DNA of 64,000 nt from Minisyncoccota bacterium (GTDB lineage: Bacteria; Patescibacteriota; Minisyncoccia; Phycocordibacterales; UBA9973), in the NCBI GenBank assembly GCA_031413715.1, contig JANOFO010000009.1, positions 2,718 to 66,717 of the forward strand, given 5' to 3'. A program made the translations under genes and the position numbers. The notes under the pieces were generated by a model. It worked only from the letters and a program-made list of their open reading frames with translations. It searched no databases and was not told the origin of the DNA. This document shows positions 1,609-57,385 of this stretch, piece by piece. Position 1 is the first letter of the stretch. Each line of letters opens with the position of its first letter.

Positions 1609-1627
1609 ATAAGCAAATTTCCTAGCA

Positions 1628-2656: not shown

Positions 2657-3560
2657 TATAAAATACATAACTAAATGGTTTATTATTGCATCGACGGTGC
2701 TTTTGGTGCCGATTCACGCTTTTGCATTTACTATCACCACTCCTCCAGAAGAAGTAGCGATATCGGCCCAAGTTATTTCAACGACTCCACCATCTCCATC
2801 TAGCAATTCAAGTGGAGGCGGGGGTTACTTTGTTAGTTCTAGCATTACATTCTCCGGCATTGCGTATCCATTTGCGCGAGTTTATATACAGCAAGATGGT
2901 CAGGCTGCTATGACTGTGACTGCTGATTTTTTCGCTCGATTCTCGGCGACTATCTATAATCTTCCAACTAACATATATAAGTTCTCCGTGTATGCAAAAG
3001 ACAGTGAAGGTAGAAAATCTGCATCGTTTGCCTTTCCACTGGCCATAACATACGGAACAACTGTAAATATTAACAATATTTACTTGTCTCCAACTATTGA
3101 TATTGATAAAAGCCACGTTGCACGGGGCGATAGCCTTATTATATTTGGTCAAAGCGCTCCCCAGGCAAGCGTAAATATTTCAGTTAACTCTAATATTCTG
3201 CATTTATATTCGGCCACGACGAACATCATTGGCCAGTATTCATACAATCTTGATACCTCGTCTCTTCTGTTTGGTCCAAATCAAACTAAGTCGAGAGCGA
3301 TGATAAACAGCCAGCTGACCTCGTTCACCCCACCGCTTACATTCATTGTGGGAGACAGAAACAAAAAAAAAGAGGTAGTTGAATGTACAACAATCGTGGC
3401 TGACCTTAACTGCGATGGGAAAGTCAGCCTGATAGATTTCTCTATTATGGCCTACTGGTATAGAAACACTAATCCTCCTTCTCGGGTTGACCTCAATAGT
3501 GACGGAGTGATATCGCTCGCGGATTTTAGCATTCTAGCATTTTACTGGACCGGATTATGA
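2640..3560 (+). CDS. Secreted protein with C-terminal type-I dockerin-like tandem repeat
   Basis: 306-aa ORF with signal peptide. C-terminus DLNCDGKVSLIDFSIMAYWY...VDLNSDGVISLADFSILAFYW gives two DxNxDGxV(S)xxD Ca-binding segments typical of dockerins. Start could be the second Met (2649). Confidence 0.65.
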   Translation: MPLMYSIKYITKWFIIASTVLLVPIHAFAFTITTPPEEVAISAQVISTTPPSPSSNSSGGGGYFVSSSITFSGIAYPFARVYIQQDGQAAMTVTADFFARFSATIYNLPTNIYKFSVYAKDSEGRKSASFAFPLAITYGTTVNINNIYLSPTIDIDKSHVARGDSLIIFGQSAPQASVNISVNSNILHLYSATTNIIGQYSYNLDTSSLLFGPNQTKSRAMINSQLTSFTPPLTFIVGDRNKKKEVVECTTIVADLNCDGKVSLIDFSIMAYWYRNTNPPSRVDLNSDGVISLADFSILAFYWTGL

Positions 3561-4474
3561 AACATACGATTTTAAAAAAATCTATAGTAATTATGTGTAG
3601 TCTAGTTTTGTTTCTAGCTTGTACTACTTATGTACTGGCATCAGAACTATTCTTTACTCCTTCCGCAAAAATGATAGGGCTCGGCGAAGAATTTTATGTT
3701 GATCTAATGCTTGATCCGGAAAATACCTCTGTAAACGGAATTGAGTCTACTATCGTATTTCCTCCCGACAAGATTTCTTTCGTTAGAAGCGAAGAAGGTA
3801 AATCAATGGTTGATCTGTGGATTGAAAAAACGAAAGAAAAGGCCGGAGTAATTGCTTTTTCAGGCATAATTTCGGGCGGTTTTTCCGGCGTTATAGACCC
3901 ATTCTATTCCGATATAAAATCGCCAGGATTGTTAGTTCGCTTAGTATTTAGAGGAGAGAGGCCGGGAGATGCAACAATCGAAAGCATTTCTTCGCATGTA
4001 GCCCACAATGATGGGGAAGGTACCACAGAGACCATTCTTCCACAAAGTGTTTTAGTTTCCGTAGAAAATAAAACTGCTTCCGATTCATATAAAAATATAG
4101 ACGAAACAAAGCCCGAACTTGTGGTATATGTAATCCGTGATCAGAATATTTTTAATAACAAATACACGCTTGTGATACAAGCGAACGATAAAGAGTCTGG
4201 AATTCGAGATATAATGGTTAAAGAAGGGGGTAGAGATTGGCAGATAGCCGAGAGTCCATATCTCCTTGAAGATCAGGACCGAGGCAGTACAATTACTATT
4301 CGCGCTACTAATCACACTGAACTTAGCGCTACAATGACGATTGATCCTACGGCACGCAACTTTTCTGAAGGATCTAATGCAGTTCTACTTATAATCTTTA
4401 GTATATTATTACTGATTACTTTACGGGGAATATATTCACGTAGGAGAAAAAGCCGCGAGTCTCGAGATATATGA
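3557..4474 (+). CDS. Cohesin-like domain protein with C-terminal membrane anchor
   Basis: 305-aa ORF. Signal peptide, cohesin-like beta-sandwich stretch (YVDLMLDPENTSVNGIESTIVFPPDKISFVRSEEG), C-terminal TM (AVLLIIFSILLLITL) plus RRRK tail. 4-nt ATGA overlap with the upstream gene. Confidence 0.5.
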   Translation: MKHTILKKSIVIMCSLVLFLACTTYVLASELFFTPSAKMIGLGEEFYVDLMLDPENTSVNGIESTIVFPPDKISFVRSEEGKSMVDLWIEKTKEKAGVIAFSGIISGGFSGVIDPFYSDIKSPGLLVRLVFRGERPGDATIESISSHVAHNDGEGTTETILPQSVLVSVENKTASDSYKNIDETKPELVVYVIRDQNIFNNKYTLVIQANDKESGIRDIMVKEGGRDWQIAESPYLLEDQDRGSTITIRATNHTELSATMTIDPTARNFSEGSNAVLLIIFSILLLITLRGIYSRRRKSRESRDI

Positions 4475-5208
4475 AGATCAATCATCTTAAAATAACTTTA
4501 TATAGCTTTGCAATTCTCGGAATATTTTTGATATCTGCGCCTTCTTTTGCTGTTACTGCAATCAATTTTGACGGTCCGTCGCTATTGCCCACTGCTCGAA
4601 TTTTTATAAAGCCGAGCTCTGGTAATTATACAGCAGGTTCTACATTTGAAGCCCCGATTTACATAGATACAGAGAATAATAATATCAACGCTATCAATAT
4701 AAAACTGCGCTTTGACTCATCTAAACTTAAGGTTGTAAAATCTTCAAGCGGTGATTCAATCTTTGGTATATGGATAGAGAGTCCAAATTATGACAATGTG
4801 AAAGGTACGGCAAGCCTGGTGGGTGTGATACCAAATGGTATCGTCACATCATCCGGACTTATTGCGACGATTACCTTCAAAGCGCTTACAACAGGGCATG
4901 CCAATGTGATGCTTACTGACTATTCGAGCGCTAATCTCAATGATGGATATGGTACAGAAGTGAAATTAATTGAAAGTGGAGCATCGTATAATTTTACACC
5001 AGCAACCCCCAATTCGATCGTGGAGACACCTAAAGATACTTTCCCTAAACCAATTATTATCTATATTCATGATAAACAAGAGTCCTTTTTCCTATCTATA
5101 TATGCTGATCTATTTCTAAAATACAATTTTCCGATTCTTCTGCTCCTGTTACTACTTTTACTCCTTCTAGAAGAGAGGCGAAAAAAGGGAAAAACCCTTA
5201 ATAACTAA
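4471..5208 (+). CDS. Cohesin-like domain protein with C-terminal poly-Leu membrane anchor
   Basis: 245-aa ORF. Signal peptide, cohesin-like region (NAINIKLRFDSSKLKVVKSSSGDSIFGIW...ATITFKALTTGHANVMLTD), C-terminal ILLLLLLLLLLLEERRKKGK. 4-nt overlap with the upstream gene. Confidence 0.55.
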   Translation: MKINHLKITLYSFAILGIFLISAPSFAVTAINFDGPSLLPTARIFIKPSSGNYTAGSTFEAPIYIDTENNNINAINIKLRFDSSKLKVVKSSSGDSIFGIWIESPNYDNVKGTASLVGVIPNGIVTSSGLIATITFKALTTGHANVMLTDYSSANLNDGYGTEVKLIESGASYNFTPATPNSIVETPKDTFPKPIIIYIHDKQESFFLSIYADLFLKYNFPILLLLLLLLLLLEERRKKGKTLNN

Positions 5209-8590: not shown

Positions 8591-9592
8591 ATGAACATAC
8601 TCCTTGCTATTGTTTGCATTTTATTCTCAGCGTTGTTCGCAGGATTGACCCTCGGACTGATGGGCCTCGATCTATCTACGCTTAGGCGCAAGATGAAACA
8701 TGGAGATCGTGATGCTGCTCGTGTTTACCATATTCGCGAGAATGGAATGTTCCTCCTGACTACGCTTCTATTGGGAAATGCTGCCGCATCGGCGTTCTTC
8801 TCGATACTTGTTGGAGATATTGTAAATAATTATTGGGCTGGAATCATCGCCACTGCCGCTCTTTTTATTGTCGGTGAAATACTACCACAAGCCATTGTCT
8901 CTCGATTTGCCCTTTCTTTTGGCGCTCATACAGCTCCGCTGATTCGCTTTATTATGATAATTTTCTCACCGATCTGCTACCCGATAGCATGGATACTCAA
9001 TAAAATTCTAGGCAAAGAAACTCCGACAAGTTATACCAAGCGCGACCTGCTCTCTATCATCGAAGATGATAAGACGACCCCTGATGGAGATGTCGATCAT
9101 GATGAACGACGAATTGCCAAAGGCGCCTTCTCATTCTCGCATCGCCTTGTAGAACATGTCATGACGCCGAATACAGTAGTCAAGCTCGTTCATGCAGAAG
9201 ATATTATTGATGAAGCATATTTGGCTGATCTGAAGGATTCCGGTTACTCCCGGCTTCCAGTCGGTACCAATGACCCGAATCAATTTGTGGGTATTTTGTA
9301 TTTGAAGGATCTTCTCGGCATTGTGATTCCGAAAAAAGTAAGAGACGTAATGGATTCTACTATTCATTTCGTAAATACTTCGGATCCTCTTGATACGGTC
9401 CTTGATCAATTTATTAAAACCAAAATGCATCTCTTTGTAGTTCTCGATGAGTTCGGAGGATTCGAAGGAGTGATTACGGTAGAAGACGTGATCGAAGAGA
9501 TCATCGGTGCTGAAATAATGGATGAAGATGATGTAACCCCCGATCTTCGTCAAGAAGCCATGCTTCATAGAATTCGTAGAAGGGTAGAGTAA
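8591..9592 (+). CDS. CNNM/CorC-HlyC family transporter (DUF21 membrane domain plus CBS pair)
   Basis: 333 aa. N-terminal multi-TM DUF21-like region (LLGNAAASAFFSIL), then CBS-like region. Confidence 0.8.
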   Translation: MNILLAIVCILFSALFAGLTLGLMGLDLSTLRRKMKHGDRDAARVYHIRENGMFLLTTLLLGNAAASAFFSILVGDIVNNYWAGIIATAALFIVGEILPQAIVSRFALSFGAHTAPLIRFIMIIFSPICYPIAWILNKILGKETPTSYTKRDLLSIIEDDKTTPDGDVDHDERRIAKGAFSFSHRLVEHVMTPNTVVKLVHAEDIIDEAYLADLKDSGYSRLPVGTNDPNQFVGILYLKDLLGIVIPKKVRDVMDSTIHFVNTSDPLDTVLDQFIKTKMHLFVVLDEFGGFEGVITVEDVIEEIIGAEIMDEDDVTPDLRQEAMLHRIRRRVE

Positions 9593-21034: not shown

Positions 21035-23128
21035 ATGCAAGAACAAAACAAGCCCTCAGATTCTATAGCGAAAAAACTCCAATTACTTAAGAATAAAAAT
21101 ATAGAAGAAAAACAGGCTCCTGTTCGTGCTCGGATTAAGAAAGTTCAAGAAGACTTATATTTTCTTACTGTAATTAAAGGGTCACTCACACTGAAGTCAC
21201 AACAAGTTCCAGGCTCTAATTCCACTGAGAGTGGCATAGGTATGTCAGAATACAAAGATAGCATTAATTCAATGCTTGAAGAAAAAGAGCATGCACTAAA
21301 GGATCTATTTGCATCTCATAAAGACGACCTAGCGCCTCTTGGTGTTCTAAAATGGGAAGACTTACTTACGAATAATGAATTTAAAGATGGAGTAGAAGCC
21401 AATGAATATAACCAAGCTGTCGAAGAAAACGAGATACTTGCCAAAACTGATACCACGCTTCATGAAAGACTAAAAGCACTCGATGTATTGCCACCAAGTA
21501 ATGACTTTTCTTATGCGCTAGCCACTCAAGCAGTTGATAAGAAAATTGGCGAACTAAAGAAAGAACTTGTAGAAAAAACAAAAGAATTCCCAGAAGAAAG
21601 AAAAAAACTTCTTCAAAGTATGATTCTGGAATATAAATTAAAACCCAATGGCCTAAAATTCAATATTAAGGATAATGCTGCAGAAGATTTTGACCTAACT
21701 CAAGATTCAATAGAGAAATCTCAATCAGACTTTTTTGCGTTAGAGCAAAAATACGGAAGCGATTTTGCTTATGAAGTGCTAAGAGAGACATACCGACCAA
21801 ATGTCCACGATCAGATTCGTAAGTATGATAATAATAATGAACATGTTCTCTCACTCTCTGAGCAGATAAAAGCTATTTCTCCTGAGGTAAAGAAGAGAGC
21901 TTTGGAGTTGCTCACTGAATTTCAAAGAGTTCAAGTAGTATGCATAGAAATGCTTAATGTCAAATCTGAAGAATTGAAGGGAAAGGGATTAGTTCTTGAC
22001 CCTGTCAATCTTCCTAATAGTTACGGTCTTACGTATCAAGAAATCATTGGTTTAACCAGCCATCCTGAAATGACCCAAAGTTATGAAAATAGCATTAAAG
22101 ATGAAGGATTTCCTCCAAAGTTTAATCTTAGCGATCTTTCTGCGAGATTAGAAAGTAGAACAGAGGCAGTTAAAAATTTTACTGAACAAATTAAAGGTAT
22201 TGAAGATCAAGAAAGCTTAAAAGCATTTTACGATGCCGGAGATAAAGGTCAAATAGCTAAATTACATTTCAATCTGTTGCACCAAAAAGATTTGTACAAT
22301 TTTAAATTTGTTGAAGAAAACTACGACTCTAGTAACAAATCACCTCTTAAAGAAGTAATTTCTAAGATAAGAGGCTCAAAAACATACGAAGAAGCAGAGA
22401 AATACCTTGCTGAGAAGAGAGCTAAACTCCAAGCTATGGAAGATAATGTTCTTTTGAAAGTTGAATATAAATCAAAAGATCGACATATATATAATAAATT
22501 GGAGGTTCTTTTTGCGAATGTGAGAGAAGCGGAGAATAGAAATAAAATTGCGTACATGACTGATGTTTTAAGGCGGACAGATAAAATAGAAGAACTCAAA
22601 GGTCCGTTTAATATTGCAATTGATGATGTGAAAGAAAGAATGAGACTTTATTCCGATTCTGAACCAGTTACTATTAATGAATGGGTCTTTAAAATCAATT
22701 CTTTCGATAGTTCAATATTTGCTGTGGAGTCGCGAATTCATCAATTAGAAAAAGAATTAAGAGATAAAATAAAAGAAGTAAAGATAAAACAAGAAAAAAA
22801 TCCCGGGAAAGATAGGTGGTTCAGTTTGAGTTCAAAGCATGCAGTATGGGAGTCAGAATTAGAAAAGTTAATGATAGAAGAAAGAGACTTAAGTAACAAT
22901 ATAAAAAATGAAGAAGAAAAGCTACGTGTTTTAAAAAAGGAATCGGTATTGGCGATGCCAAATGGTGATTCTTTTTCAATGTTCTTGGATAGGTTACAGT
23001 TTACTGGAACTAAAGCTGAAGTTTTCCAAGAGTTAGAAAGGATAGTAAAAGAAAAAACAGAACCTAAATTTCCACCAGGTGCTCTTGAACTATATAAACA
23101 ATATCAAGATTTACCTAAAGAGAGCTAA
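21035..23128 (+). CDS. Large hypothetical K/E-rich, coiled-coil-rich cytoplasmic protein
   Basis: 697-aa ORF, no TM or signal peptide, no catalytic motif recognised. Confidence 0.6.
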   Translation: MQEQNKPSDSIAKKLQLLKNKNIEEKQAPVRARIKKVQEDLYFLTVIKGSLTLKSQQVPGSNSTESGIGMSEYKDSINSMLEEKEHALKDLFASHKDDLAPLGVLKWEDLLTNNEFKDGVEANEYNQAVEENEILAKTDTTLHERLKALDVLPPSNDFSYALATQAVDKKIGELKKELVEKTKEFPEERKKLLQSMILEYKLKPNGLKFNIKDNAAEDFDLTQDSIEKSQSDFFALEQKYGSDFAYEVLRETYRPNVHDQIRKYDNNNEHVLSLSEQIKAISPEVKKRALELLTEFQRVQVVCIEMLNVKSEELKGKGLVLDPVNLPNSYGLTYQEIIGLTSHPEMTQSYENSIKDEGFPPKFNLSDLSARLESRTEAVKNFTEQIKGIEDQESLKAFYDAGDKGQIAKLHFNLLHQKDLYNFKFVEENYDSSNKSPLKEVISKIRGSKTYEEAEKYLAEKRAKLQAMEDNVLLKVEYKSKDRHIYNKLEVLFANVREAENRNKIAYMTDVLRRTDKIEELKGPFNIAIDDVKERMRLYSDSEPVTINEWVFKINSFDSSIFAVESRIHQLEKELRDKIKEVKIKQEKNPGKDRWFSLSSKHAVWESELEKLMIEERDLSNNIKNEEEKLRVLKKESVLAMPNGDSFSMFLDRLQFTGTKAEVFQELERIVKEKTEPKFPPGALELYKQYQDLPKES

Positions 23129-24711: not shown

Positions 24712-25353
24712 ATGAAAACTGCTTTTACTAAAATTGCTTCTTTAACCTTGGTCTCACTTATTTCTCTTCAAGCATTCTATACGGTCGTTTTTGAACCTTC
24801 CCTAGCTGAGGCAGTTACTGACAACGTCATCGTAACTCTGACAGTCGATGCAGGCATCACTATTTCAGACGGTGCAGCTGTTACTATGTCTCCCAACATT
24901 GGTATTAGTGCCAATGGCTCCATAGGCTCTTCCTCTTGGGTTGTTACAACTAATGATGCTGATGGATATACCTTGGCTGTACAAGCTTCAGCTTCTCCTG
25001 CTCTTGCAAGCGGTGGCAACTCATTTGCTGATTATACGGAAGCGGTTGCCGGGACTCCTGAAGTATGGAGCGTGCCGGGTGGATCGAAAGAATTCGGGTA
25101 CTCAGCGTTCGGGACTGATACATCAACTGCAGAATATGGAACAGGCGCTTCATGCGGTTCAGCCGGAGCGCCGACTGGTACTGCAAAGTATGAAGGATTT
25201 GATACATCTCCTAATACGATTGCTACAAGGGCGAGCGTCACTCCAACTACTGGAATAACAACTACAATTTGTTTTGCTGCTGAACAAGACACGACCTTTG
25301 CAGCTGCTGGTACCTACACTGCAACTATTACCGGCACTGCGCTTGCATTGTAA
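24712..25353 (+). CDS. Secreted Thr/Ala-rich surface protein (paralog family of 388..1608)
   Basis: 213 aa. Signal peptide ...SLAEA, T/A/G-rich, C-terminal GTYTATITGTALAL. Confidence 0.65.
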   Translation: MKTAFTKIASLTLVSLISLQAFYTVVFEPSLAEAVTDNVIVTLTVDAGITISDGAAVTMSPNIGISANGSIGSSSWVVTTNDADGYTLAVQASASPALASGGNSFADYTEAVAGTPEVWSVPGGSKEFGYSAFGTDTSTAEYGTGASCGSAGAPTGTAKYEGFDTSPNTIATRASVTPTTGITTTICFAAEQDTTFAAAGTYTATITGTALAL

Positions 25354-25383
25354 AAGAAGTCTTAATTAAGTATCTCTAAATTT

Positions 25384-26355
25384 GTGAAGCAATCATTCCG
25401 AAATAAAACAGTCTTTTATATATTTCTTATTCTTGTCTTTTTTTCATCAGGGAGTGTTTTTGCATATCAAAAAAGTAAGATTGATATAACTCCGCAAAAT
25501 GACTTTGTGGTAGAACCGGGAAAAACTGAGATCTTTCTCAATCCAGGGGAGTCAACTGTCAAGAATATCACTATTACGAATAGAATTGATAGGAATGTTA
25601 ATTTCAAACTAACAACTGAAGACATAATCGGAACAGATAATCCTCTTGAACAGATTGTGCTTCTTGGCGATGAAGCGAGCCCGTATTCACTGAAAGACTT
25701 AATTAAGCCTGAAATCAATGAATTCTCGCTTGCACTTGGGGAAAAAATAGTAATACCTGTTAGCATTTCAGTTCCTGTTGATGCAGAGCCACGCGGGTAC
25801 TATGGAGCTCTTATTGTTTCTAACGATCCCGAAAAGGTAGCGACTAGTAATACAACAGAAGCAGAGAGTAAAACTCGTATAGTTTCACGAATAGGCTCTT
25901 TATTCCTAGTTAAAATAAATGGACAAGGAAAGGAAGAAGGCGCCCTTGATAGCTTTGGCCTAATAGGCCCTAAAAAGTCTTTTTATGAAAAGAGGCCAAC
26001 AGGATTTTCAATTGGATTTAAAAATACTGGAAATGTCCACTTAGTACCGTACGGAGAAGTGACTATTAAGAACATGCTTGGTAGGACTGTTGGCCAGATT
26101 CCTGTCGATGCTTATTTTGCTCTTCCAGATTCTATACGTTATCGAGAAGTTGTTTGGACTGAAGGCTTCGGGCTTGGTCACTACACTGCGCACCTATCTT
26201 TATATAAAGGATACGGCAATGAATATGATGAATCAAAAATCGGCTTTTGGGTACTGCCATGGAAAGTACTCCTCTCAATCTTGGGAGTCCTAGTGGTTCT
26301 TGTTTCACTTATATACTATATTTCTACTCGATTTGAACTAAGAAAGAAGAAGTAA
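25384..26355 (+). CDS. Membrane-anchored extracytoplasmic protein, DAEPxGxxGA family (paralog of 1628..2656)
   Basis: 323 aa. Signal peptide, DAEPRGYYGALIV, C-terminal TM plus RKKK. Confidence 0.65.
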   Translation: MKQSFRNKTVFYIFLILVFFSSGSVFAYQKSKIDITPQNDFVVEPGKTEIFLNPGESTVKNITITNRIDRNVNFKLTTEDIIGTDNPLEQIVLLGDEASPYSLKDLIKPEINEFSLALGEKIVIPVSISVPVDAEPRGYYGALIVSNDPEKVATSNTTEAESKTRIVSRIGSLFLVKINGQGKEEGALDSFGLIGPKKSFYEKRPTGFSIGFKNTGNVHLVPYGEVTIKNMLGRTVGQIPVDAYFALPDSIRYREVVWTEGFGLGHYTAHLSLYKGYGNEYDESKIGFWVLPWKVLLSILGVLVVLVSLIYYISTRFELRKKK

Positions 26356-26364
26356 AATTGTTAT

Positions 26365-27141
26365 ATGAAAGCATTACACTCTTTTATAAAAAGTAGAAAT
26401 GCTAGATTTATCTGTTTTGTGATTATTATCCTGATTTCTATACCTTCAAGGAGCATTTTAGCAGAAATGATGCAAAGTACCGGTTATAAAATCGAATCTG
26501 ACAGCATCAATATTGAAGGGAAAAATTCGTCAAGCACAAGTTATATTCTCGATGATACAGCGGGTGAGCTTAGTACTGGAGATTCAAATAGCACTAATTT
26601 TTATATGCATGCAGGCTTTTGGCAGATGCAGGAAAGTTATATTTCTATTTCTACTCCTTCTGATCTTGCCCTTACCTCTATACAAGGTTTGTCTGGAGGT
26701 GCTACGGAGGGTACGCTAGACTGGCTTGTGAAGACTGACAATGTCGCGGGATACACTATGACCATAGCTTCCTCTACAACTCCATCCCTTCAATCTGGCT
26801 CGGATTCATTTGCTGACTATGCCCCAAGCGGTGGTAACCCTGACTATACATTTACTAATACTGCCGCTAATTCGTCATTTGGGTTTTCTCCAGAAGGTAC
26901 TGAAGTTACACAGAGATATAAAGATAATGGCTCAATATGCAATACGGGTTCATCAGAGGCATCAGGTAAGTGCTGGGATGGACTTTCGACTACTCCGAAA
27001 ACTATAGCAGGTAGTACAACGAGCAATCACACTGCCGGAAATACTACTACGGTTAGATTCCGGGCTGAATCAGGTGCAAGTCATATTCAAACTTCTGGAG
27101 ATTACACGGTATCAATCATAATAACTGCTATGACATTATGA
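26365..27141 (+). CDS. Secreted Thr/Ser-rich surface protein (same family)
   Basis: 258 aa. Signal peptide, C-terminal GDYTVSIIITAMTL. Confidence 0.6.
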   Translation: MKALHSFIKSRNARFICFVIIILISIPSRSILAEMMQSTGYKIESDSINIEGKNSSSTSYILDDTAGELSTGDSNSTNFYMHAGFWQMQESYISISTPSDLALTSIQGLSGGATEGTLDWLVKTDNVAGYTMTIASSTTPSLQSGSDSFADYAPSGGNPDYTFTNTAANSSFGFSPEGTEVTQRYKDNGSICNTGSSEASGKCWDGLSTTPKTIAGSTTSNHTAGNTTTVRFRAESGASHIQTSGDYTVSIIITAMTL

Positions 27142-28202
27142 TTAAATCATCCCGCACTCTAATTTTACTTGGATTTTTTCTGTCCCTCACTTTTTCTACA
27201 TTCATTGGAAAAATTCAAGCTGGAACCGATGGAATAAATGTAAAACTCGGTGTTAATGGATGTGATAATAACGGAATATGCGAAGCAAGCAATGGTGAGG
27301 ATGTCAATAGTTGTCCGAATGATTGCACAGTAATTCCATTAGGTACTGGAAGTGGAAGCGGTGGGGGAGGAACATTTTCTATTAATTCTAGTAATTTTCA
27401 CGATCTAGTAATAGATGTTAGTTTAACTGATGCGACTATAGAGTGGAAGACTGCAATGCCCACTCTTACTGTTCTAAAGTGGGGAGAGAGTACTGATTAC
27501 GTGAGTGGCACTATCGGAGGCTACTTTTTTTTCAGGGATCATAAAGCTGAACTTATTAATTTGAAAAGCAATACTCGGTATTATTTCTCTATCAGTGGTC
27601 AGAATATTTATGGCACAATAATACAACCATACGTTGGTACATTTGTGACATCCACACCTCCAGACACAACACCTCCTAGTAAACCAAAAATCACAAACAA
27701 GATTATAAGTGCAGATGCAATCAAGCTAACATGGATCAATCCCTCCGATATAGATTTTGATTATGTTCGTTTGATGCGCAGTGAAAAATCCTTCCCAAAA
27801 ACTCCATTCACTGGCAAACTCATCTATGAGAATAAGAGGCAATATTTCACAGATCTAAATGTAACTCCGGTGAAAAAATATTATTATTCGCTTTTTGCCC
27901 GTGATAAAACTGGCAACTTTTCTTTAGGTGCAGAAGTATTTGCCCAGATGGAAATTAAGATAGTCACATGCGATCTTGATCCGTCACTATGTGCAGATAT
28001 TCCTTCTCTCTCACCACAAACCGATAATAGAAATATACCCATTACATTTCCTACCTTAAAATCATATTCCTACATAACAGTGCCTTCTACTATGACAGCT
28101 TCTCTGTCAATGCTAGAAATCAAGATAAACTCTTTTAAGATTAAAATAAAGGGGATTATTTCAACCCTCCAATCATTTTTTATAAATAAGCTTAATTTTT
28201 AA
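27138..28202 (+). CDS. Secreted Cys-rich / fibronectin type III-like domain protein with hydrophobic C-terminus
   Basis: 354 aa. Signal peptide, CDNNGICEASNGEDVNSCPNDC, FN3-like PPSKPKITNKIISADAIKLTWINP. 4-nt overlap with the upstream gene. Confidence 0.55.
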   Translation: MIKSSRTLILLGFFLSLTFSTFIGKIQAGTDGINVKLGVNGCDNNGICEASNGEDVNSCPNDCTVIPLGTGSGSGGGGTFSINSSNFHDLVIDVSLTDATIEWKTAMPTLTVLKWGESTDYVSGTIGGYFFFRDHKAELINLKSNTRYYFSISGQNIYGTIIQPYVGTFVTSTPPDTTPPSKPKITNKIISADAIKLTWINPSDIDFDYVRLMRSEKSFPKTPFTGKLIYENKRQYFTDLNVTPVKKYYYSLFARDKTGNFSLGAEVFAQMEIKIVTCDLDPSLCADIPSLSPQTDNRNIPITFPTLKSYSYITVPSTMTASLSMLEIKINSFKIKIKGIISTLQSFFINKLNF

Positions 28203-28228
28203 GGACAATATATAGATGTGTATAACTT

Positions 28229-28261
28229 AGCCTTATTTTATTGGAAAATAAGGCTTTTTGA
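28229..28261 (+). terminator. Rho-independent terminator
   Basis: TAGCCTTATTTT-attgg-AAAATAAGGCT followed by TTTTT. Confidence 0.75.
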
Positions 28262-28347
28262 TTTATAATATCTTTATATCGAGTTTAGTTAAAATTTAAC
28301 AAATTTTAACCTCGGCTATCCGAGATCTCCTTATTTTACTTCACTAA

Positions 28348-28716
28348 ATGAACTTATTAAAAAAAGTCGTTCCACTAAGCCAAGCAGCAAAACTCTCCGG
28401 CTACAACCAAGACTACTTGGGCTATTTAATCCGTGTAGGAGAAATTAAGGGGCAAAAAGTCGGCCGGGGATGGGTTACAACTGAAGAAGAAATAAAAAAT
28501 TATCTTTTAAAGCAGAAGATTCGTCAAAAAAAATTAGCACTCTTGGACTTCTTTACCCGAGAGCGTAATAAAAAGATTATCCTAACCACCATCATATTGT
28601 TTGTAGTCAGTTTTTCGACGTGGTTTTATATTCTAGATCATAAGAATTTTCATGCAACTGGTGTCCAATCTTCACTTACTTCTGAATCTGAAAAATTACA
28701 GGAAAAGGAAAATTAA
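28348..28716 (+). CDS. Small membrane protein with N-terminal excisionase-type helix-turn-helix-like segment
   Basis: 122 aa. LSQAAKLSGYNQDYLGYLIRVGEIKGQKVGRGWVTTEEEIKNYL resembles Xis/MerR-type HTH. One TM helix. Confidence 0.5.
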   Translation: MNLLKKVVPLSQAAKLSGYNQDYLGYLIRVGEIKGQKVGRGWVTTEEEIKNYLLKQKIRQKKLALLDFFTRERNKKIILTTIILFVVSFSTWFYILDHKNFHATGVQSSLTSESEKLQEKEN

Positions 28717-28721
28717 AAAAT

Positions 28722-31700
28722 ATGTATTCATTCGAAAAAACAAACAGAAAATTAAGAAACAAATCAAATACTGCGCTCGCAGTTTTATTGGTTGCTCTGT
28801 CACTTTTTCAGTTTCCATTCATCGGTAGAGCGGCATTTAACAAACAAATAAATTATCAAGGCAAGCTCACCAACGCGTCTGGAGTTGCAGTTGCAAATGG
28901 GGACTACAATATGGAATTCAAGTTAATGACAGTCTCAAGCGGTGGTGACACTACGCAAGGTTCGTGTACTACTAGTTGTGCATGGATGGAAACAAGAACT
29001 GGCGGAAGCAAGGTAACTGTGACGAACGGCCTCTTTAGTGTTCTCCTTGGTGAAGTTACTTCACTCTCTGGAGTTGATTTTAACCAGACCTTATATTTGT
29101 CAGTTCAGATCGGCAATACAGGAAGTCCATCATGGGATGGAGAAATGACTCCACGAAAAAAATTGGGAGCAGTTCCTGCAGCAGTTGAATCAGAGCGAGT
29201 CGGAGGATTTACTCCAGCCCAATCTGCAACAGGCAATCAAGTTCCGGTGCTTACATCTGGAAATTTAATTCTTGGCGGAACAAATCCAACATTCGGCGGA
29301 ACGGGATCAAATACATTGACGCTTCATAATGGCGCAACAGGAGATATTCAATTTTTCGGTTCATCAAATAAGATTACTTCCGGAGGCGCGCTTACAGTTA
29401 CGGGTGTTGTAAATGCTGCAGGATTGACTTCTTCTGGAGCAATTACATTTTCATCACTTGGCACCGGTATTGCTCATCTATCTTCGGGGGGCGTGCTCTC
29501 ATCGTCAGCTATTGATCTGGCAACTGCTGATGTCACGGGAATTTTGACAACAGCAAAAGGTGGAACAGGCATTGGAACACTTGCCTCCAATGCAGTACTC
29601 TATGGTAATGGTACCGGAGCCATTCAAGCCTTGGCTGTAAACTCAGGTGCAACCCTGTGTCTTACTCAAGCAAGTAGTGGTGCACCGGCATGGGGATCAT
29701 GTGGTGCAGGAGGCTCTACCAACTGGGATACCATAGGTGATGCAGGAGGGAATGGCGCCATTGCTATGGGTACCACGGAGCAGACTATGGATTGGGATTT
29801 CACTACGACTGATCACGATGGACTTACCTTTAATTTTGATAACAATGGAGGAACAGCAGGGACCGACCATGGAATTGTTATCAATAACGCACTCTCAACA
29901 AATGCATCTGGAGATCTTGATACAGAAAATTTATTACTGATTCAACAACTCGATACGACTGCTTCTGGCGTAACTGATATTGATAATCTTCTTAAGATAG
30001 ATATCGCAGCAAACTCAGGTGCAACTGATGGCATCGAAATTACAAATTCTGGAGGAAACATCACTGGCAGTGGACTTAATATTGTCGACACAGGAGGCGG
30101 TACCTTTACAACAGGCATCACGCTTGCGGGAACGTTTACTACTGGAATAGATATGGGAGCGAGTACATTAATTAATATTGGAAACGCTGCCACTGATTTT
30201 AATTCGAGCGGTGGACTAACACTTGCGAGTGACCTCGTACTCAATGCCCAAGCAGATGTCCGGTTTGCAGATGCGGATAGTTCTCATTATGTTGGATTCC
30301 AAGCACCATCAAGTATCAGTTCGAGCTTTACATGGACACTGCCATCTACTGACGCAACAGGGTGTCTAAAATCGAATGGTTCAGGAACACTTTCTTTTGA
30401 TGGTGCCTGTGGAGAAACTGACTATGAAACATTTACAGGAAATGGAACTTTTACTAAAAAATCAAATGCCCTTTTAGTTGTTGTCGAAGCATGGGGTCCT
30501 GGTGGTGGCGGTGCAGGAGGAGGTAGTGTTGCTGCTGGTACCGCTACTACAGGTGGTGGAGGTGGTGGAGGAGGCGCATATACAACTCGATCGATTGCTG
30601 CAGGATCTGTCGGAGCGACTGAAACGGTGACCGTTCCTGCTGGCGGTACGGCTGGAACCGGTGGTACAAATGCTGTCGGTACAGATGGTTCTGCTCCGAC
30701 AGCTGATACAAGTTTTGGATCACTCCTCATTGCATATAGAGGAGGAGGTTCTGGAAATGGAAACAACTCTGCTACTGGCGGCGGAGGCGGCGGAGGCGGC
30801 GGATCAGCAGGTGCAGGAACAAGCTCGACGAACCAAACAGGAGGAGCTGGTGGTACATGTGCTGGTGGTGTAACCGTTGGTGCTGGAGCAAACGCTTTTG
30901 GTAGCTGTGGCGGCGGCGGAGGAACAACAACTTCAGGTAATGCGAATGAAGGAGGAGGCGGTGGTGGAGGACTTGCTGCCGGAGGAACTGCAGGACGATC
31001 GGGAGGTACATCCCTCAAGGGAGGCGGCGGAGGCGGTGGAGGAGCAAGTCTTGCAGCAACTCATGCTTCGACTGCCGGAGGTCCAGGAGGTGCAAGTGGT
31101 GCTGCGATGCAGGCAGCAGGAACCGGCGGAGGTGTTGCCGGAGGTGCTGCTGGAACAAATAATGGAACTGCCGGCCAAGATGCAACTTCTTCAACTGGTT
31201 CGCAGATTGGAGGTGGTGGAGGAGGCGGTGGAGGAGGCAGTCAGGCTACAGCTGGATCAAACGGCGGAGCCGGGGCAGTCGGAGGTATTCCTGGAGGAGG
31301 TGGTGGAGGAGGCGGAGCAGGAACGCATAACGGTTCGACAGGAAGTGGCGGAGCCGGAGGAGCCGGCGCACGTGGAGAAATTCGTGTTTGGACCTATCGT
31401 GGCACAGGAGCCGATTTGGCGGAAGTTTACGGAACAAATGACTCAACCCTTGAAGCCGGAGATGTCGTATCTCTTGATCATGACATGCAAGCGGGAGTTA
31501 AAAAAAGCAGCAAAGCATATGATGCTGAGGTAATGGGTATTGTTTCAACAAAACCTGGCATGATTATCGGTAATATTGAAGATGCTGGCGCCATTCCAGT
31601 CCTTCTCGCACTCTCTGGTCGTGTTCCCGTAAAAGTAAATATGGAAAATGGCGCGATTAAAAAAGGCGACCTCCTTACCCCTTCATCCATTCCTGGTGTT

Positions 31701-32990
31701 GCAATGCGAGCGACAAAAGCAGGTAGTATTATCGGACAGTCAATGACAGAGTATATTGACCCTGATGCGCCAGGGTATGTGGTAGTTTTTATTAAGAATA
31801 GTCATACGACGGGAGCAAAACTTTCTGATCTTTTTGCAGGAGAACTTGAGATGATAGGAGGGGAGATAGATAAAGGAGTGGAATTAAATCCATCAGAATT
31901 AATAAAAGGAACCAAAACGCTCCAACAGCGTGCACTTGCTTATTTTAATACTAATAAATTGACTCTCTCAGAGTCTCTCAATCTTTCGGAAGTGACTGCC
32001 GATAGAGTTACTGCAGGACTTGAAATTATAACGCCGACACTCTTTGTAGGAACTGTTTCAACCGATTCTATAACTCCTCTAAATGGAACTTCTCTTGATA
32101 TACTGCTTTCGAATGAAGGTACATTCAACATTAAGAACCAATTGTTGACAGAAGGAGCCGGATCAGCCGAACCTATTGTCAGTATTGATAATTTAGGGAA
32201 CGCGACATTTGCGGGTAATCTAAAAGTAAAAAGTATCAAAGCAGATTCGATCGAAGGTCTCGATTCTTTACTCATGACTAATGCCCATTTAGCCTGGGAT
32301 TCTTTCACAACAAAAACCCTGACTGTATCCGAGAACGCAATCTTTAGTGGAGAATCAAGGTTTGATGGCCTCACATTCTTTAGTATGGCTGCGAACTTTG
32401 ATTCCAGTGTGACATTTAATGCACAATCGGAATTTATTCTTCCACCACTCTTCAATAGTGATACAGCTGGCTTTGCTATAATAAAAAAGGGGAGTCGCAG
32501 AGTTCAAATAATTTTTGAGACGCCTTATATAGTTGAGCCTGTTGTAACCACATCGCTTGTATTTAGCACTGCGGATAAAGTGACTGATTCTGGAGCAGAT
32601 GAGATATTTACTGCAAGCGTTCAGTCTCTTGTCATCGATAGTGATCAAAATGGATTTACTATTTTTTTGAACAAAAACGCGCCACAAGATCTAAGATTCA
32701 CTTGGAATGCGCTTTCTGTCCGCGATCCGAAAATTTTTGAAAGTGTTATCGAAGGTCTCACCATTGAAAATTTACCACTAGACCTACTTCCGCCAGATCC
32801 TTTACCTGATCCAATTCCAGAACCCGACCCAGTCCCTGATCCAACTTCAAAAGAAGAAGATCCAGTTCTTGATCCTATTCCTGTGCTTGATCCAGAGCCT
32901 GTCCAACAAGAAGACCCAGCCCCGATACTTATAGAGATATCTGAGCCGGTAGTGGAAACAAAAGAGGAGCCCATTCCTATAGTTGAGTAA
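28722..32990 (+). CDS. Giant (1422 aa) secreted glycine-rich fibre-like surface protein with Pro/Asp-rich C-terminal tail
   Basis: Signal peptide. N-terminal YQGKLT... beta domains. About 300 aa of GGGGGGG/GAGG low-complexity repeats. C-terminal PDPLPDPIPEPDPVPDP. Confidence 0.75.
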   Translation: MYSFEKTNRKLRNKSNTALAVLLVALSLFQFPFIGRAAFNKQINYQGKLTNASGVAVANGDYNMEFKLMTVSSGGDTTQGSCTTSCAWMETRTGGSKVTVTNGLFSVLLGEVTSLSGVDFNQTLYLSVQIGNTGSPSWDGEMTPRKKLGAVPAAVESERVGGFTPAQSATGNQVPVLTSGNLILGGTNPTFGGTGSNTLTLHNGATGDIQFFGSSNKITSGGALTVTGVVNAAGLTSSGAITFSSLGTGIAHLSSGGVLSSSAIDLATADVTGILTTAKGGTGIGTLASNAVLYGNGTGAIQALAVNSGATLCLTQASSGAPAWGSCGAGGSTNWDTIGDAGGNGAIAMGTTEQTMDWDFTTTDHDGLTFNFDNNGGTAGTDHGIVINNALSTNASGDLDTENLLLIQQLDTTASGVTDIDNLLKIDIAANSGATDGIEITNSGGNITGSGLNIVDTGGGTFTTGITLAGTFTTGIDMGASTLINIGNAATDFNSSGGLTLASDLVLNAQADVRFADADSSHYVGFQAPSSISSSFTWTLPSTDATGCLKSNGSGTLSFDGACGETDYETFTGNGTFTKKSNALLVVVEAWGPGGGGAGGGSVAAGTATTGGGGGGGGAYTTRSIAAGSVGATETVTVPAGGTAGTGGTNAVGTDGSAPTADTSFGSLLIAYRGGGSGNGNNSATGGGGGGGGGSAGAGTSSTNQTGGAGGTCAGGVTVGAGANAFGSCGGGGGTTTSGNANEGGGGGGGLAAGGTAGRSGGTSLKGGGGGGGGASLAATHASTAGGPGGASGAAMQAAGTGGGVAGGAAGTNNGTAGQDATSSTGSQIGGGGGGGGGGSQATAGSNGGAGAVGGIPGGGGGGGGAGTHNGSTGSGGAGGAGARGEIRVWTYRGTGADLAEVYGTNDSTLEAGDVVSLDHDMQAGVKKSSKAYDAEVMGIVSTKPGMIIGNIEDAGAIPVLLALSGRVPVKVNMENGAIKKGDLLTPSSIPGVAMRATKAGSIIGQSMTEYIDPDAPGYVVVFIKNSHTTGAKLSDLFAGELEMIGGEIDKGVELNPSELIKGTKTLQQRALAYFNTNKLTLSESLNLSEVTADRVTAGLEIITPTLFVGTVSTDSITPLNGTSLDILLSNEGTFNIKNQLLTEGAGSAEPIVSIDNLGNATFAGNLKVKSIKADSIEGLDSLLMTNAHLAWDSFTTKTLTVSENAIFSGESRFDGLTFFSMAANFDSSVTFNAQSEFILPPLFNSDTAGFAIIKKGSRRVQIIFETPYIVEPVVTTSLVFSTADKVTDSGADEIFTASVQSLVIDSDQNGFTIFLNKNAPQDLRFTWNALSVRDPKIFESVIEGLTIENLPLDLLPPDPLPDPIPEPDPVPDPTSKEEDPVLDPIPVLDPEPVQQEDPAPILIEISEPVVETKEEPIPIVE

Positions 32991-33020
32991 GAATTGTAAA
33001 AATAGATTACTATATATAGT

Positions 33021-33998
33021 ATGAAAATAGGCTTAAAGACAACCGCCCTCTCACTCTTCTTTCTCCTTATAGGTTTTGGAGTTGGTTTTGTTTTGGATAA
33101 AGGTACTCACTCTCGATGTAGTGCTGAAAATTTTGAACATATTAATCCTGACTTGGTTTGTAAACTGGCACCAGTGGTCAGCAAACAAGGATACAGTAAA
33201 CTCAAAGCTGATTTAGAAAAGTTTATCTCGGATAAAAAACAAGAAGGAATTGTTAGCTCAGTATCAATTTATTTTCGTGATTTACATAATGGACCTACGC
33301 TTGGTATGAATGAGTATGAAAAATTTTCTCCGGCAAGCTTATTAAAGCTCCCGCTCTTCTTAACTTACCTTAATCTTTCAGAAAATAATCCTGCATTCTT
33401 AGAAACAAAAATAGGTTTCGAAGAAAAAAATCTTACTCAAAAGCAGTACTTTCCGTCTGCGAAAATTGCCCAGAACAATACTCCCTATACTATAAATACT
33501 CTGCTTGAATATATGATAGAGTATTCTGATAATAATTCGTACTATGCCTTAAATCAATACTTGAGACAGGTCTCTCCAAATACTGATTTATTGCGAGAGA
33601 CATTCCTGGATTTAGGTATCATTGATCCACAAAACTTTGCCGATCAGACGTTGTCTGTTAAGTCGTATGGATCTATTTTTGTCCAGCTTTATCACAGTTC
33701 TTTTTTTTCTAAAAAGGAACTGTCGGAACAAGCACTTTCCTTGCTTTCTAAATCAGATTTTAAAGAAGGGATAACTCTTGGTGTGCCTACTGAACTTGAA
33801 ATAGCTCATAAATTTGGCGAACGTTCTGACTTGCCAAATAATGAAAAACAGCTGCACGATTGCGGAATTGTGTATTACCCCAAGAATCCATATCTCCTAT
33901 GTGTGATGACACGGGGGACTGACTTTAAACAACTTTCCCATATAATAGGCGAGATATCGAAAATGACATATAAAGAATTCGATTCTCGAAAAATATAG
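33021..33998 (+). CDS. Class A beta-lactamase-like / penicillin-binding-fold serine hydrolase
   Basis: 325 aa. N-terminal TM/signal. SxxK (SLLK), SDN (YSDNNS) and K(T/S)G-like (KFG) motifs in the canonical order. Confidence 0.5.
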   Translation: MKIGLKTTALSLFFLLIGFGVGFVLDKGTHSRCSAENFEHINPDLVCKLAPVVSKQGYSKLKADLEKFISDKKQEGIVSSVSIYFRDLHNGPTLGMNEYEKFSPASLLKLPLFLTYLNLSENNPAFLETKIGFEEKNLTQKQYFPSAKIAQNNTPYTINTLLEYMIEYSDNNSYYALNQYLRQVSPNTDLLRETFLDLGIIDPQNFADQTLSVKSYGSIFVQLYHSSFFSKKELSEQALSLLSKSDFKEGITLGVPTELEIAHKFGERSDLPNNEKQLHDCGIVYYPKNPYLLCVMTRGTDFKQLSHIIGEISKMTYKEFDSRKI

Positions 33999-34011
33999 TA
34001 TAATTAAAAAT

Positions 34012-34737
34012 ATGGAAAGAACACAAGAAGGATTTATTGTACCTCTTATTATTATCATAATCGCAGGGCTTGGTGTCGGGGGAGGTGTTTATTATTCTAA
34101 AAAAGTTAAACAACAAAATCTAGAGAAAGGGGCTGCTGTACAAAAAGTTGATGCCACGATAGACTCTAGATTAGATGGAAAGATTGAAGCAAATTCAAAT
34201 CAAAAAATTTCTGATAATGGTAAATCGTCTGTCGATTTAAACGCAGGGAATTCTCTATCAGGAATTGTAAAGACCAATATGACGATGCAAGAATTGCTTT
34301 CTGTATATAAAGGAAAAACTTTAGAATGCATTTCAAACTTTGCAGATCCGTCATCTGGAATGACAAATAGTGGCACAACCTATATTCATGGAAATCTTAT
34401 TCGTTCTGATAATACTATGATGTACAAAGGTGCTGTAACTAAAAGTAGTATGATCATTAAAGATGGAAATGAGATATATTCTTGGACTGGGAGTCAAGGA
34501 ACGAAAATGTCTATCAATGCTTCATTTGATATAAATACTGCGCTCAGCATGAGTGCCGGTGTCAAAAATTCCTCAAACCAAAAATCAGAATATTCATGTA
34601 CTCCTTGGATAGCTGATGCAAGTAAATTTGTACCACCAGCTTCTGTTAAATTTACTGATTACGGTACAATCTCAATCCCATCAGTTTCTCCCGAAATGAT
34701 GAAGCAGATGATAGAAGCACAGGCAGGTACTAGATAA
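34012..34737 (+). CDS. Hypothetical N-terminally anchored extracytoplasmic protein
   Basis: 241 aa. One N-terminal TM, S/N/G-rich. Confidence 0.5.
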   Translation: MERTQEGFIVPLIIIIIAGLGVGGGVYYSKKVKQQNLEKGAAVQKVDATIDSRLDGKIEANSNQKISDNGKSSVDLNAGNSLSGIVKTNMTMQELLSVYKGKTLECISNFADPSSGMTNSGTTYIHGNLIRSDNTMMYKGAVTKSSMIIKDGNEIYSWTGSQGTKMSINASFDINTALSMSAGVKNSSNQKSEYSCTPWIADASKFVPPASVKFTDYGTISIPSVSPEMMKQMIEAQAGTR

Positions 34738-57310: not shown

Positions 57311-57385
57311 GGAGCCGCCTCCCAGACTCGAACTGGGGACCCTCACTTTACAAAAGTGTAGCTCTACCAACTGAGCTAAGGCGGC
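57311..57385 (-). tRNA. tRNA-Thr (anticodon TGT)
   Basis: Reverse complement GCCGCCTTAGCTCAGTTGGTAGAGCTACACTTTTGTAAAGTGAGGGTCCCCAGTTCGAGTCTGGGAGGCGGCTCC folds as a cloverleaf: 7-bp acceptor stem, GTTCGAGTC T-loop, anticodon loop TTTGTAA. A27-A43 mismatch; CCA not encoded. Confidence 0.85.

Follow-up and report, generated by a model that had tools for sequence, protein, structure and literature searches.

The window analysed here is a stretch of 64,000 nucleotides from contig JANOFO010000009.1 (assembly GCA_031413715.1) of a Minisyncoccota bacterium, and its positions 24,712 to 34,737 hold an island of surface-protein genes built around a giant gene, the product of which, 1422 amino acids long, resembles the tail fibres of bacteriophages. 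Eight open reading frames (ORFs) follow each other on the forward strand, at the positions given by the first-pass annotation, a description made from the sequence alone. They are listed below; HTH stands for helix-turn-helix, TM for transmembrane and FN3 for fibronectin type III:

24712..25353, + strand: secreted pilin-like protein, 213 amino acids (ORF, N-terminal signal segment, synteny)
25384..26355, + strand: chaperone-like protein, 323 amino acids, with signal peptide, C-terminal TM helix and basic tail
26365..27141, + strand: PamT-like pilin-like protein, 258 amino acids (NCBIfam NF058579)
27138..28202, + strand: secreted Cys-rich FN3 protein, 354 amino acids, PamR-like without the C-terminal TM anchor
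28348..28716, + strand: HTH-TM protein, 122 amino acids, with an excisionase/MerR-type N-terminal HTH and one TM helix
28722..32990, + strand: tail-fibre-like giant surface protein, 1422 amino acids (ORF)
33021..33998, + strand: membrane-anchored serine hydrolase of class A beta-lactamase fold, 325 amino acids (PF13354)
34012..34737, + strand: N-terminally anchored protein, 241 amino acids, of no known family, included by position only

The genes are tightly packed, with intergenic gaps of −4 to 145 nucleotides, and the stop codon of the HTH-TM gene lies 5 nucleotides ahead of the start of the giant. Signal or TM segments are present on all products of the island, except at the N-terminus of the HTH protein. 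Upstream, the island is flanked by rpsP-KH-trmD (domains called as Ribosomal_S16, KH and tRNA_m1G_MT) and downstream by rpoB. The sole tRNA gene of the window is located at 57311-57385, and none flanks the island.

The layout of the giant was derived by mapping 119 listed homologues onto the protein and by searching with each domain separately; at least 298 homologues were found at E ≤ 1e-3. Searches of Pfam, NCBIfam and PDB sequences with the whole giant returned nothing useful, and the per-domain alignments of orthologues alone were informative. We are confident of the resulting domain assignments. The N-terminus is basic and contains one hydrophobic signal or TM segment (amino acids 17-35, in a signal or anchor region spanning 1-38). 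It is followed by these parts:

28836..29231, + strand: Ig-like (immunoglobulin-like) beta-sandwich domain, amino acids 39-170, proposed base or docking domain
29232..30413, + strand: variable Gly/Thr/Ala-rich shaft, amino acids 171-564
29589-30251, + strand: mosaic module in the shaft, amino acids ~290-510
30414..31406, + strand: Gly-rich domain of Gly_rich_2 or polyglycine-II (PGII) bundle type, amino acids 565-895, proposed receptor-binding domain
31407..31796, + strand: Peptidase_G2-type intramolecular-chaperone domain, amino acids 896-1025
31413-31424, + strand: motif D898-L-A-E901, with predicted cleavage A897|D898
31797..32426, + strand: conserved linker region, amino acids 1026-1235, of variable length in relatives
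32427..32765, + strand: H-type-lectin-like domain, amino acids 1236-1348
32766..32990, + strand: Pro/Asp/Glu tail, amino acids 1349-1422, and stop codon

The poly-Gly stretch in the centre of the giant had been put down as low complexity in the first-pass annotation; it is instead a conserved, folded domain of a type known from phages. In an alignment of 11 members (A1), the giant is 41-50% identical to ten other giants, all from other samples; 70 columns are invariant, and the Gly runs line up, as do the beta-strands that flank them and several Cys positions. The giant's own domain (amino acids 563-894) has no Pfam match even at E ≤ 10, to which the composition filters of HMMER may contribute, and nine of the 11 orthologous domains match PF21722 (Gly_rich_2; best E 2.8e-7). 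Among solved chains, the A1 profile matched one, the gp33 'tail wing brush' of mycobacteriophage Bxb1 (PDB 9d93, E 1.9e-5). For a fold search, an AlphaFold2 (AF2) monomer model of amino acids 560-1030 was used as query (mean predicted local distance difference test score, pLDDT, 60.9; predicted template modelling score, pTM, 0.60). The top Foldseek match in the PDB was again gp33 (9d93_Qa, E 3.3e-7, TM-score on target 0.63), followed by the fibre of cyanophage Pam3 (7ypx). Among the viral structures of BFVD, 210 matched at E ≤ 1e-3 (best E 8e-18, 29-38% identity), most of them Caudovirales 'glycine-rich domain-containing proteins', mycobacteriophage minor tail proteins and tail fibres. These profile and fold matches bear out the earlier suggestion of a Gly-rich domain of phage tail-fibre type. 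The gp33 protein, the Pam3 fibre and the gp38 adhesin of Salmonella phage S16 are glycine-rich bundles of polyproline-II/polyglycine-II helices (PMC13243192); by analogy with gp38, the domain of the giant may present loops for receptor binding on a scaffold of poly-Gly. The Gly-domain profile, searched against a database, retrieved proteins of 400-600 amino acids, often combining Gly_rich_2 with DUF2793. An ALK/LTK-type Gly_rich domain (PF12810) and a TNF-like fold were also considered and were dropped, as neither was matched in the Pfam, PDB sequence or fold searches.

A stretch that is 39% Gly, with eight runs of 4-10 Gly, might be an artefact of assembling or sequencing a simple repeat, in which case the true gene would be shorter or split. 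We regard this as extremely unlikely. Short arrays of GGN codons do exist, and the GC content rises to 0.50 at 30-32 kb, versus about 0.40 elsewhere; the rise is explained by the Gly codons. Tandem Repeats Finder reports only micro-arrays of 21-30 nucleotides in the DNA of the region, its longest exact internal repeat is 20 nucleotides, and the Gly codons are mixed (62 GGA, 41 GGT, 25 GGC and one GGG). The reading frame is open across the 4.3 kb of the gene. Over 19,241 nucleotides that include the whole giant gene, the window agrees letter for letter with a separate Logan assembly of SRR20217197. The ten orthologous domains from other samples share the same ~13 Gly runs, together with the beta-strands and Cys positions around them. 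When 1.84 billion representative proteins were scanned in full with HMMER, about 50 clusters were found to span the Gly-rich and chaperone domains end to end. Two further ORFs overlap the region, a Pro-rich one of 198 amino acids on the reverse strand (30422-31018) and one of 218 amino acids in another forward frame (30877-31533); they are by-products of the runs of GGN codons, which read as NCC (Pro) in antisense, and not genes.

Directly after the Gly-rich domain, the giant contains a domain for which homology to the autochaperone of gp12, the pre-neck appendage (tail spike) of Bacillus phage phi29, is well supported by sequence comparison. Neither it nor the lectin-like domain further on had been picked up in the first-pass annotation. 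A profile of 37 sequences (A2) matched the gp12 autochaperone (3gqh, E 1.3e-3) and full-length gp12 (6qz9, E 2.6e-3), and the aligned region opens with the residue at which the released chaperone chain begins (DFAEYFE in gp12, DLAEVYG in the giant). Asp898 and Glu901 are thereby aligned to Asp692 and Glu695 of gp12, the cleavage-site Asp and the catalytic Glu; the uncleaved 'pre-mature' gp12 structure (3suc) has a Gln where the giant has Glu901. Both acidic residues are invariant in A2 and are kept in 202 of 212 instances of the domain. The Pfam family PF11962 (Peptidase_G2, 'IMC autoproteolytic cleavage domain', IMC being the intramolecular chaperone) is matched by 14 of the 37 members (best E 3.6e-9), and the giant alone stays below the threshold (14.7-15 bits, the cut-off being 25; E 0.017-0.02).

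In phi29, gp12 is a homotrimer and the IMC is absent from the virion (PMC9863714). Transposed to the giant by this alignment, cleavage would take place between Ala897 and Asp898; that the giant does cleave itself is a finely balanced proposal, to which we give slightly less than even weight. Several relatives contain two or three chaperone-like copies, each with an intact D-x-A-E motif (loci L028, L030, L023, L039, L024 and L076; proteins P0084 and P0104), which could reflect polyprotein-like processing that yields several fragments, or else a role of the domain that is structural only. On a Saccharibacteria contig (L005, JAXLZU010000001.1), several large fibre-like genes lie side by side, some with Peptidase_S74 and YadA_head domains in place of the G2-type domain, and they adjoin a two-component system and two single-domain response regulators.

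At the other end of the giant, the Ig-like domain is conserved: among the listed homologues, it is aligned in about 95 of the 119 and was detected by phmmer in 65 of 120. AF2 models it as a beta-sandwich (pLDDT 72-91 over amino acids 39-149), and a fold search gave only generic Ig/MG-like matches (E ≥ 0.013). A NEAT-like identity was considered; its matches were sub-threshold (E ~0.5) next to the generic Ig/MG ones, and no family was assigned. Beyond the first domain, the AF2 monomer model of amino acids 30-565 is of low confidence and uninformative, and the shaft has a weak match to the beta-solenoid of FapA (E 0.0067). The mosaic module within the shaft is 56-72% identical to differently positioned segments of six other giants (P0007, P0010, P0012, P0014, P0016 and P0023), a pattern that amounts, in sequence terms, to the shuffling of domains known from phage tail fibres.

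The linker, a family-conserved 'cterm' segment, has extra heptad-like insertions in relatives and no family match in a Pfam search. After it, the lectin-like domain is 43-53% identical to aligned family members, 12 of 18 of which match PF09458 (H_lectin, best E 8.5e-6); the giant's own copy has no H_lectin match at E ≤ 1, and a profile of the C-terminal domain found no relative by sequence among solved structures. In the final 74 residues, Pro accounts for 28%, Glu for 16% and Asp for 12%; there is no TM segment in them and no anchor motif after them. In some relatives, cytoplasmic units of DNA-binding type are joined to the N-terminus of the giant through a TM helix: two MerR/HTH_17 units in P0004 (L004:3432-10301) and phage-integrase SAM-like units in P0093. 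In one further locus (L050), a SAM-like gene of 170 amino acids is located directly upstream of the giant. The fusions suggest that fibre and DNA-binding module are linked across the membrane.

The genes upstream of the giant are best read against the Pam pilus of Candidatus Mycosynbacter amalyticus, in which PamA, PamB and PamE pilins are joined by donor-strand exchange and PamT forms the tip, PamR is the anchor, with tandem FN3 domains and a C-terminal TM helix, and PamC and PamD are chaperones bearing both a signal peptide and a C-terminal TM helix; a 'tail fibre-like protein', which was not dissected, is consistently co-localised with the pam operons, and corB is nearby (bioRxiv 10.64898/2026.03.03.709456). 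In the island, the 258-aa protein matches the NCBIfam model NF058579 (CPR_pilus_PamT) with E 2.2e-11 and 43.6 bits, versus a cut-off of 240 bits, over amino acids 16-140 only; by sequence, it is a PamT homologue and not an equivalog. The C-terminal ~165 residues of the 213-aa protein are paralogous to it (31% identity). The 323-aa protein has TM segments at amino acids 9-27 and 295-313 and a basic tail, an architecture that, with its signal peptide and C-terminal TM helix, is that of PamC and PamD; its best family match is a weak one to WxLIP_PGBD (E 0.08).

The first-pass annotation had described the 354-aa protein as secreted and Cys-rich with an FN3 domain and the 122-aa one as a small membrane protein with an excisionase-type HTH, and both descriptions find weak confirmation. 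For the former, Pfam gives Pur_ac_phosph_N (E 5.6e-4) and fn3 (E 0.0096), and PHROGs an FN3 region (phrog_31, E 1.1e-4). For the latter, HTH_17 is matched in Pfam (E 0.011) and an excisionase in PHROGs (phrog_1840, E 4.9e-5), with a TM segment at amino acids 77-95; its homologues are 45-63% identical. The same annotation listed a cassette followed by the FN3 and HTH genes; the genes are as it said, and what it missed is that all of them form, with the giant, one conserved Pam-pilus-like operon.

Orthologues of the cassette are present in four metagenomic loci (L166-L169), looked up from homologues of the HTH protein, and in all four the HTH-TM gene is located directly upstream of a giant. The order is that of the window, with proteins of ~210, ~320 and ~258 amino acids, an FN3 protein of ~440, an HTH-TM protein of ~120 and the giant. 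The cassette proteins are 35-68% identical to those of the window (47-68% for the 213-aa protein, which keeps its position in the operon, 61-64% for the 323-aa protein and 60-67% for the 258-aa protein). The FN3 orthologues are longer (434-450 amino acids), with an extra domain and a C-terminal TM segment and basic tail, and align solely to amino acids ~1-282 of the window copy. The latter has no C-terminal TM segment; its last ~70-90 residues are unrelated to the orthologues, and no remnant was found in other frames. A deletion may be the cause, or the anchor may have been lost specifically in this lineage. The giants of the four loci share only the N-terminal domain with that of the window (51-63% identity); beyond it they diverge, and lengths range from 1422 to over 3200 amino acids. 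The six-gene unit is portable, since it is flanked by different genes in different loci (MurJ, EF-G, a two-component system).

A wider set of 84 genomic loci was selected via the chaperone domain, with neighbours found by iterative searches. Near the giants of these loci, PamT-like or pilin-like genes occur in 15, chaperone-like genes in eight and the HTH-TM gene in one. The link to the HTH-TM gene was seen only in the searches that started from the HTH protein and is therefore specific to this operon subfamily. In 32 giants the N-terminus is complete and 3 kb or more of sequence is available upstream; for these, Pam-like genes were scored within 7 kb upstream. They are present for seven of the nine giants with the N-terminal Ig-like domain and for none of the 23 without it (Fisher p 1e-5, uncorrected for shared ancestry), which ties the conserved base of the giant to pilus-like genes.

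The chaperone-like domain is widespread. A scan with seven sequences found at least 582 relatives in species-representative genomes; of the best 80 (47-73% identity), nearly all bear Patescibacteria labels, from the groups Saccharibacteria, Microgenomates and Parcubacteria. Relatives that are 50-60% identical also occur in metagenome-assembled genomes titled Gammaproteobacteria, Pseudomonadales, Planctomycetia and Nanoarchaeia (L008, L018, L024, L026, L027, L073, L081 and others); these bins are probably mislabelled or contaminated. Viral contigs contain 119 relatives of the domain, with identities of 33-44% only. About 1,250 strong matches were counted among 1.8 billion representative proteins.

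The window contains a second pilus-like cluster, island 1 (388-5208), which encodes five secreted or anchored proteins of 406, 342, 306, 305 and 245 amino acids. Among them, the 342-aa product (1628-2656), with its C-terminal TM helix, is a paralogue of the 323-aa protein (25% identity). None of the five matches an NCBIfam Pam model, and for a two-domain major pilin of PamA/B type there was no NCBIfam match to the other proteins of either island. A gene of CorB/CNNM type (DUF21 and CBS domains; GldE subfamily E 6e-40, CorC E 1.5e-20) lies at 8591-9592; its distance of a few kb from island 1 is reminiscent of the neighbourhood of corB and pam in Candidatus M. amalyticus. Further on, and upstream of rpsP, a Lys/Glu-rich protein of 697 amino acids (21035-23128) has no family in the precomputed Pfam results, NCBIfam or PHROGs.

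Downstream of the giant, the earlier reading of the 325-aa product as a class A beta-lactamase-like serine hydrolase holds: it matches PF13354 (Beta-lactamase2) with E 9.5e-30, has an N-terminal membrane anchor and keeps the SxxK, SDN and KxG motifs. Its nearest PDB entry is 3cjm, a putative beta-lactamase, and the NCBIfam model bla_class_A scores it at 63.9 bits against a cut-off of 200; from its sequence it belongs to the class A fold family and cannot be called a beta-lactamase. Homologues of the hydrolase lie beside giants in 13 of the 84 loci, in 11 of them directly at the 3' end of the giant. This recurrent adjacency suggests that the hydrolase is a cell-wall-directed partner enzyme, which probably acts on peptidoglycan. 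The next protein (241 amino acids), also annotated before as anchored, does have an N-terminal TM segment (amino acids 8-26); its Pfam and NCBIfam matches are all sub-threshold, and no relatives of it were found near the other giants of the 84 loci.

The giant may be an attachment fibre of an episymbiont, as the first-pass annotation had proposed. In the fuller form that we consider probable, it is a tail-fibre-like, cell-surface fibre for attachment to the host, conserved at its base, mosaic and exchangeable in its distal part, and encoded in a Pam-pilus-like operon. The region would constitute one operon for a cell-surface appendage of a bacterium of the candidate phyla radiation (CPR) or Patescibacteria type, in which the five upstream genes provide a small Pam-pilus-like set (two pilin-like proteins, an anchored chaperone-like protein, the FN3 protein and the HTH-TM protein). 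The giant would leave the cell by Sec export, and its N-terminal Ig-like domain would form the proximal base, docking to the upstream gene products or to the envelope, with the rest projecting outwards. The G2-type chaperone domain would help the fibre to fold and probably to trimerise, and it may cleave the chain between A897 and D898. The Gly-rich PGII domain, the lectin-like domain or both would bind a ligand on the host surface, with the mosaic distal parts setting specificity. Since syntenic operons vary in their distal modules, the fibre most likely serves in specific recognition of, and attachment to, the host surface.

Several points weigh against this interpretation. The giant's own scores for Gly_rich_2, Peptidase_G2 and H_lectin are sub-threshold, so that membership of these families comes via orthologues and profiles, and the structure models are of moderate quality (mean pLDDT 60-61) and monomeric. 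The chaperone-like domain is not terminal, with ~400 residues following it, including a possible lectin, and the two or three intact copies in some relatives are as compatible with a structural module or with polyprotein processing as with a chaperone of the classical C-terminal kind. PamT is the sole Pam protein matched by sequence, no major pilin of PamA/B type was detected, and the FN3 protein of the window is without the TM anchor of its orthologues. The co-occurrence test of seven in nine against none in 23 ignores shared ancestry. More generally, the domain and gene evidence comes from sequences and models, rather than from experiment or expression.

Whether the giant belongs to the cell at all can be judged from its surroundings. 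A true phage tail fibre, left as the remnant or cargo of a prophage or tailocin in an integrated element, would account for the fact that all the recognisable distal domains are closest to characterised phage tail proteins, for the excisionase-type HTH of the small upstream protein and for the relatives of the chaperone domain on 119 viral contigs. We consider this very unlikely. The earlier observation that there are no prophage genes nearby was upheld: no capsid, portal, terminase, tail tube, baseplate or integrase gene was found around the giant, and PHROG scans of ten neighbouring proteins returned only the generic FN3 region and the excisionase-type HTH. The island is placed between housekeeping genes (rpsP-KH-trmD and rpoB) with no flanking tRNA, and the operon recurs at different chromosomal sites in the company of pilus-like, not phage, genes. 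The chaperone-domain relatives on viral contigs are also more distant (33-44% identity) than those in CPR genomes (50-73%), and the signal peptides and TM anchors indicate export by the Sec route.

Two other readings accept a cellular protein and differ on its job; each is in our estimation unlikely. According to one, the giant is a free-standing protein of the envelope or matrix (S-layer-like, of a biofilm or a scaffold of the wall), with neither host recognition nor a link to pili, and its phage-like domains are generic modules. The subfamily with this N-terminal domain is tightly syntenic with the cassette, which argues against it, even if chaperone-domain giants often have no Pam-like neighbours (23 of the 32 informative loci) and the N-terminal domain itself is a generic Ig-like fold. 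Multiple chaperone-like domains do suggest a repeated structural unit, and the giant has a Pro-rich acidic tail, of a kind typical of wall-spanning segments; Pfam-level searches of the giant detected no SLH, LPXTG or other wall-anchor domain. The mosaic distal parts, which diverge between syntenic operons, follow the pattern of a specificity determinant and not that of a scaffold, and the type of Gly domain is tied to phage receptor-binding and tail accessory proteins. According to the other reading, the giant is not a free fibre: it would be the exchangeable host-recognition head of a miniature donor-strand pilus of Pam type, its Ig-like domain joined to the two pilin-like proteins via the anchored chaperone, and phage-derived modules (PGII, self-cleaving G2 and lectin) swapped for host range. 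The HTH-TM protein, co-transcribed with the giant, would then couple the appendage to gene regulation; units of HTH-TM type are fused to the giant in some relatives. Such a hybrid of chaperone-assembled pilus and phage tail fibre would, if real, be an architecture so far undescribed. The host-attachment fibre with a conserved base and exchangeable distal part is the reading that we retain.

The CPR, or Patescibacteria, make up a large share of bacterial diversity, and their recognition of and attachment to hosts are largely unexplained. To our knowledge, type IV pili and Pam pili are the only structures implicated in CPR host attachment so far. The locus adds a defined and widespread candidate for the grip on the host, with a conserved base, a portable operon and phage-style exchangeable modules. 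It makes the prediction of host range from sequence testable, as well as binding by the Gly-rich and lectin-like domains and cleavage at D898/E901, and it documents reuse of phage tail-fibre parts by cells on a large scale (the PGII domain and the G2 autochaperone). The individual parts were already known from phages, and the presence of a tail fibre-like protein beside pam operons had been noted (bioRxiv 10.64898/2026.03.03.709456). New are the domain-level anatomy of the giant (Ig-like base, mosaic shaft, PGII domain, G2 chaperone and H-lectin-like domain), the fixed six-gene operon with its HTH-TM gene, the link between the N-terminal domain and Pam-like genes, and the recurrent partner of beta-lactamase fold.

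Among known systems, the Pam locus resembles the island in belonging to a CPR lineage and in combining a PamT-like protein, a PamC/D-like chaperone and an FN3 protein, for which the likeness is to PamR-like orthologues, with a tail-fibre-like giant in one cluster; the window also contains a gene like corB and another pilus-like cluster. The island differs in having no detectable pilin of PamA or PamB type, in matching a single NCBIfam Pam model, far under its cut-off, and in its smaller cassette, with two pilin-like proteins of ~210-260 amino acids and the HTH-TM gene included. The giant is likened to the fibre-like protein of Candidatus M. amalyticus by description and location alone. The hydrolase shares its fold and its SxxK, SDN and KxG motifs with class A beta-lactamases, from which it is set apart by its score far under the NCBI cut-off, its N-terminal anchor and its recurrence beside fibre genes.

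Phage proteins provide the closest parallels to the distal parts. Like the giant, Bxb1 gp33, S16 gp38 and the Pam3 fibre have runs of 5-10 Gly between short variable loops, and domains of Gly_rich_2 type are common in tail-fibre and minor-tail proteins of the Caudovirales. The domain of the giant is larger (~330 amino acids versus 267 in gp33) and is embedded in a cellular protein of 1422 residues, whereas the phage versions stand alone or cap a phage fibre. As in phi29 gp12, the chaperone domain is C-terminal to a beta-rich fibre or spike body; unlike gp12, the giant is cellular and predicted to be Sec-exported, it continues for ~400 residues after the chaperone domain, including the lectin-like domain, and its relatives have up to two or three chaperone copies. 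A cellular precedent exists in Bdellovibrio bacteriovorus, the mosaic adhesive trimer (MAT) fibres of which are phage-tail-fibre-like proteins with variable tips that serve in prey recognition. The giant and the MAT fibres are alike in concept only, their domain sets and lineages being different.

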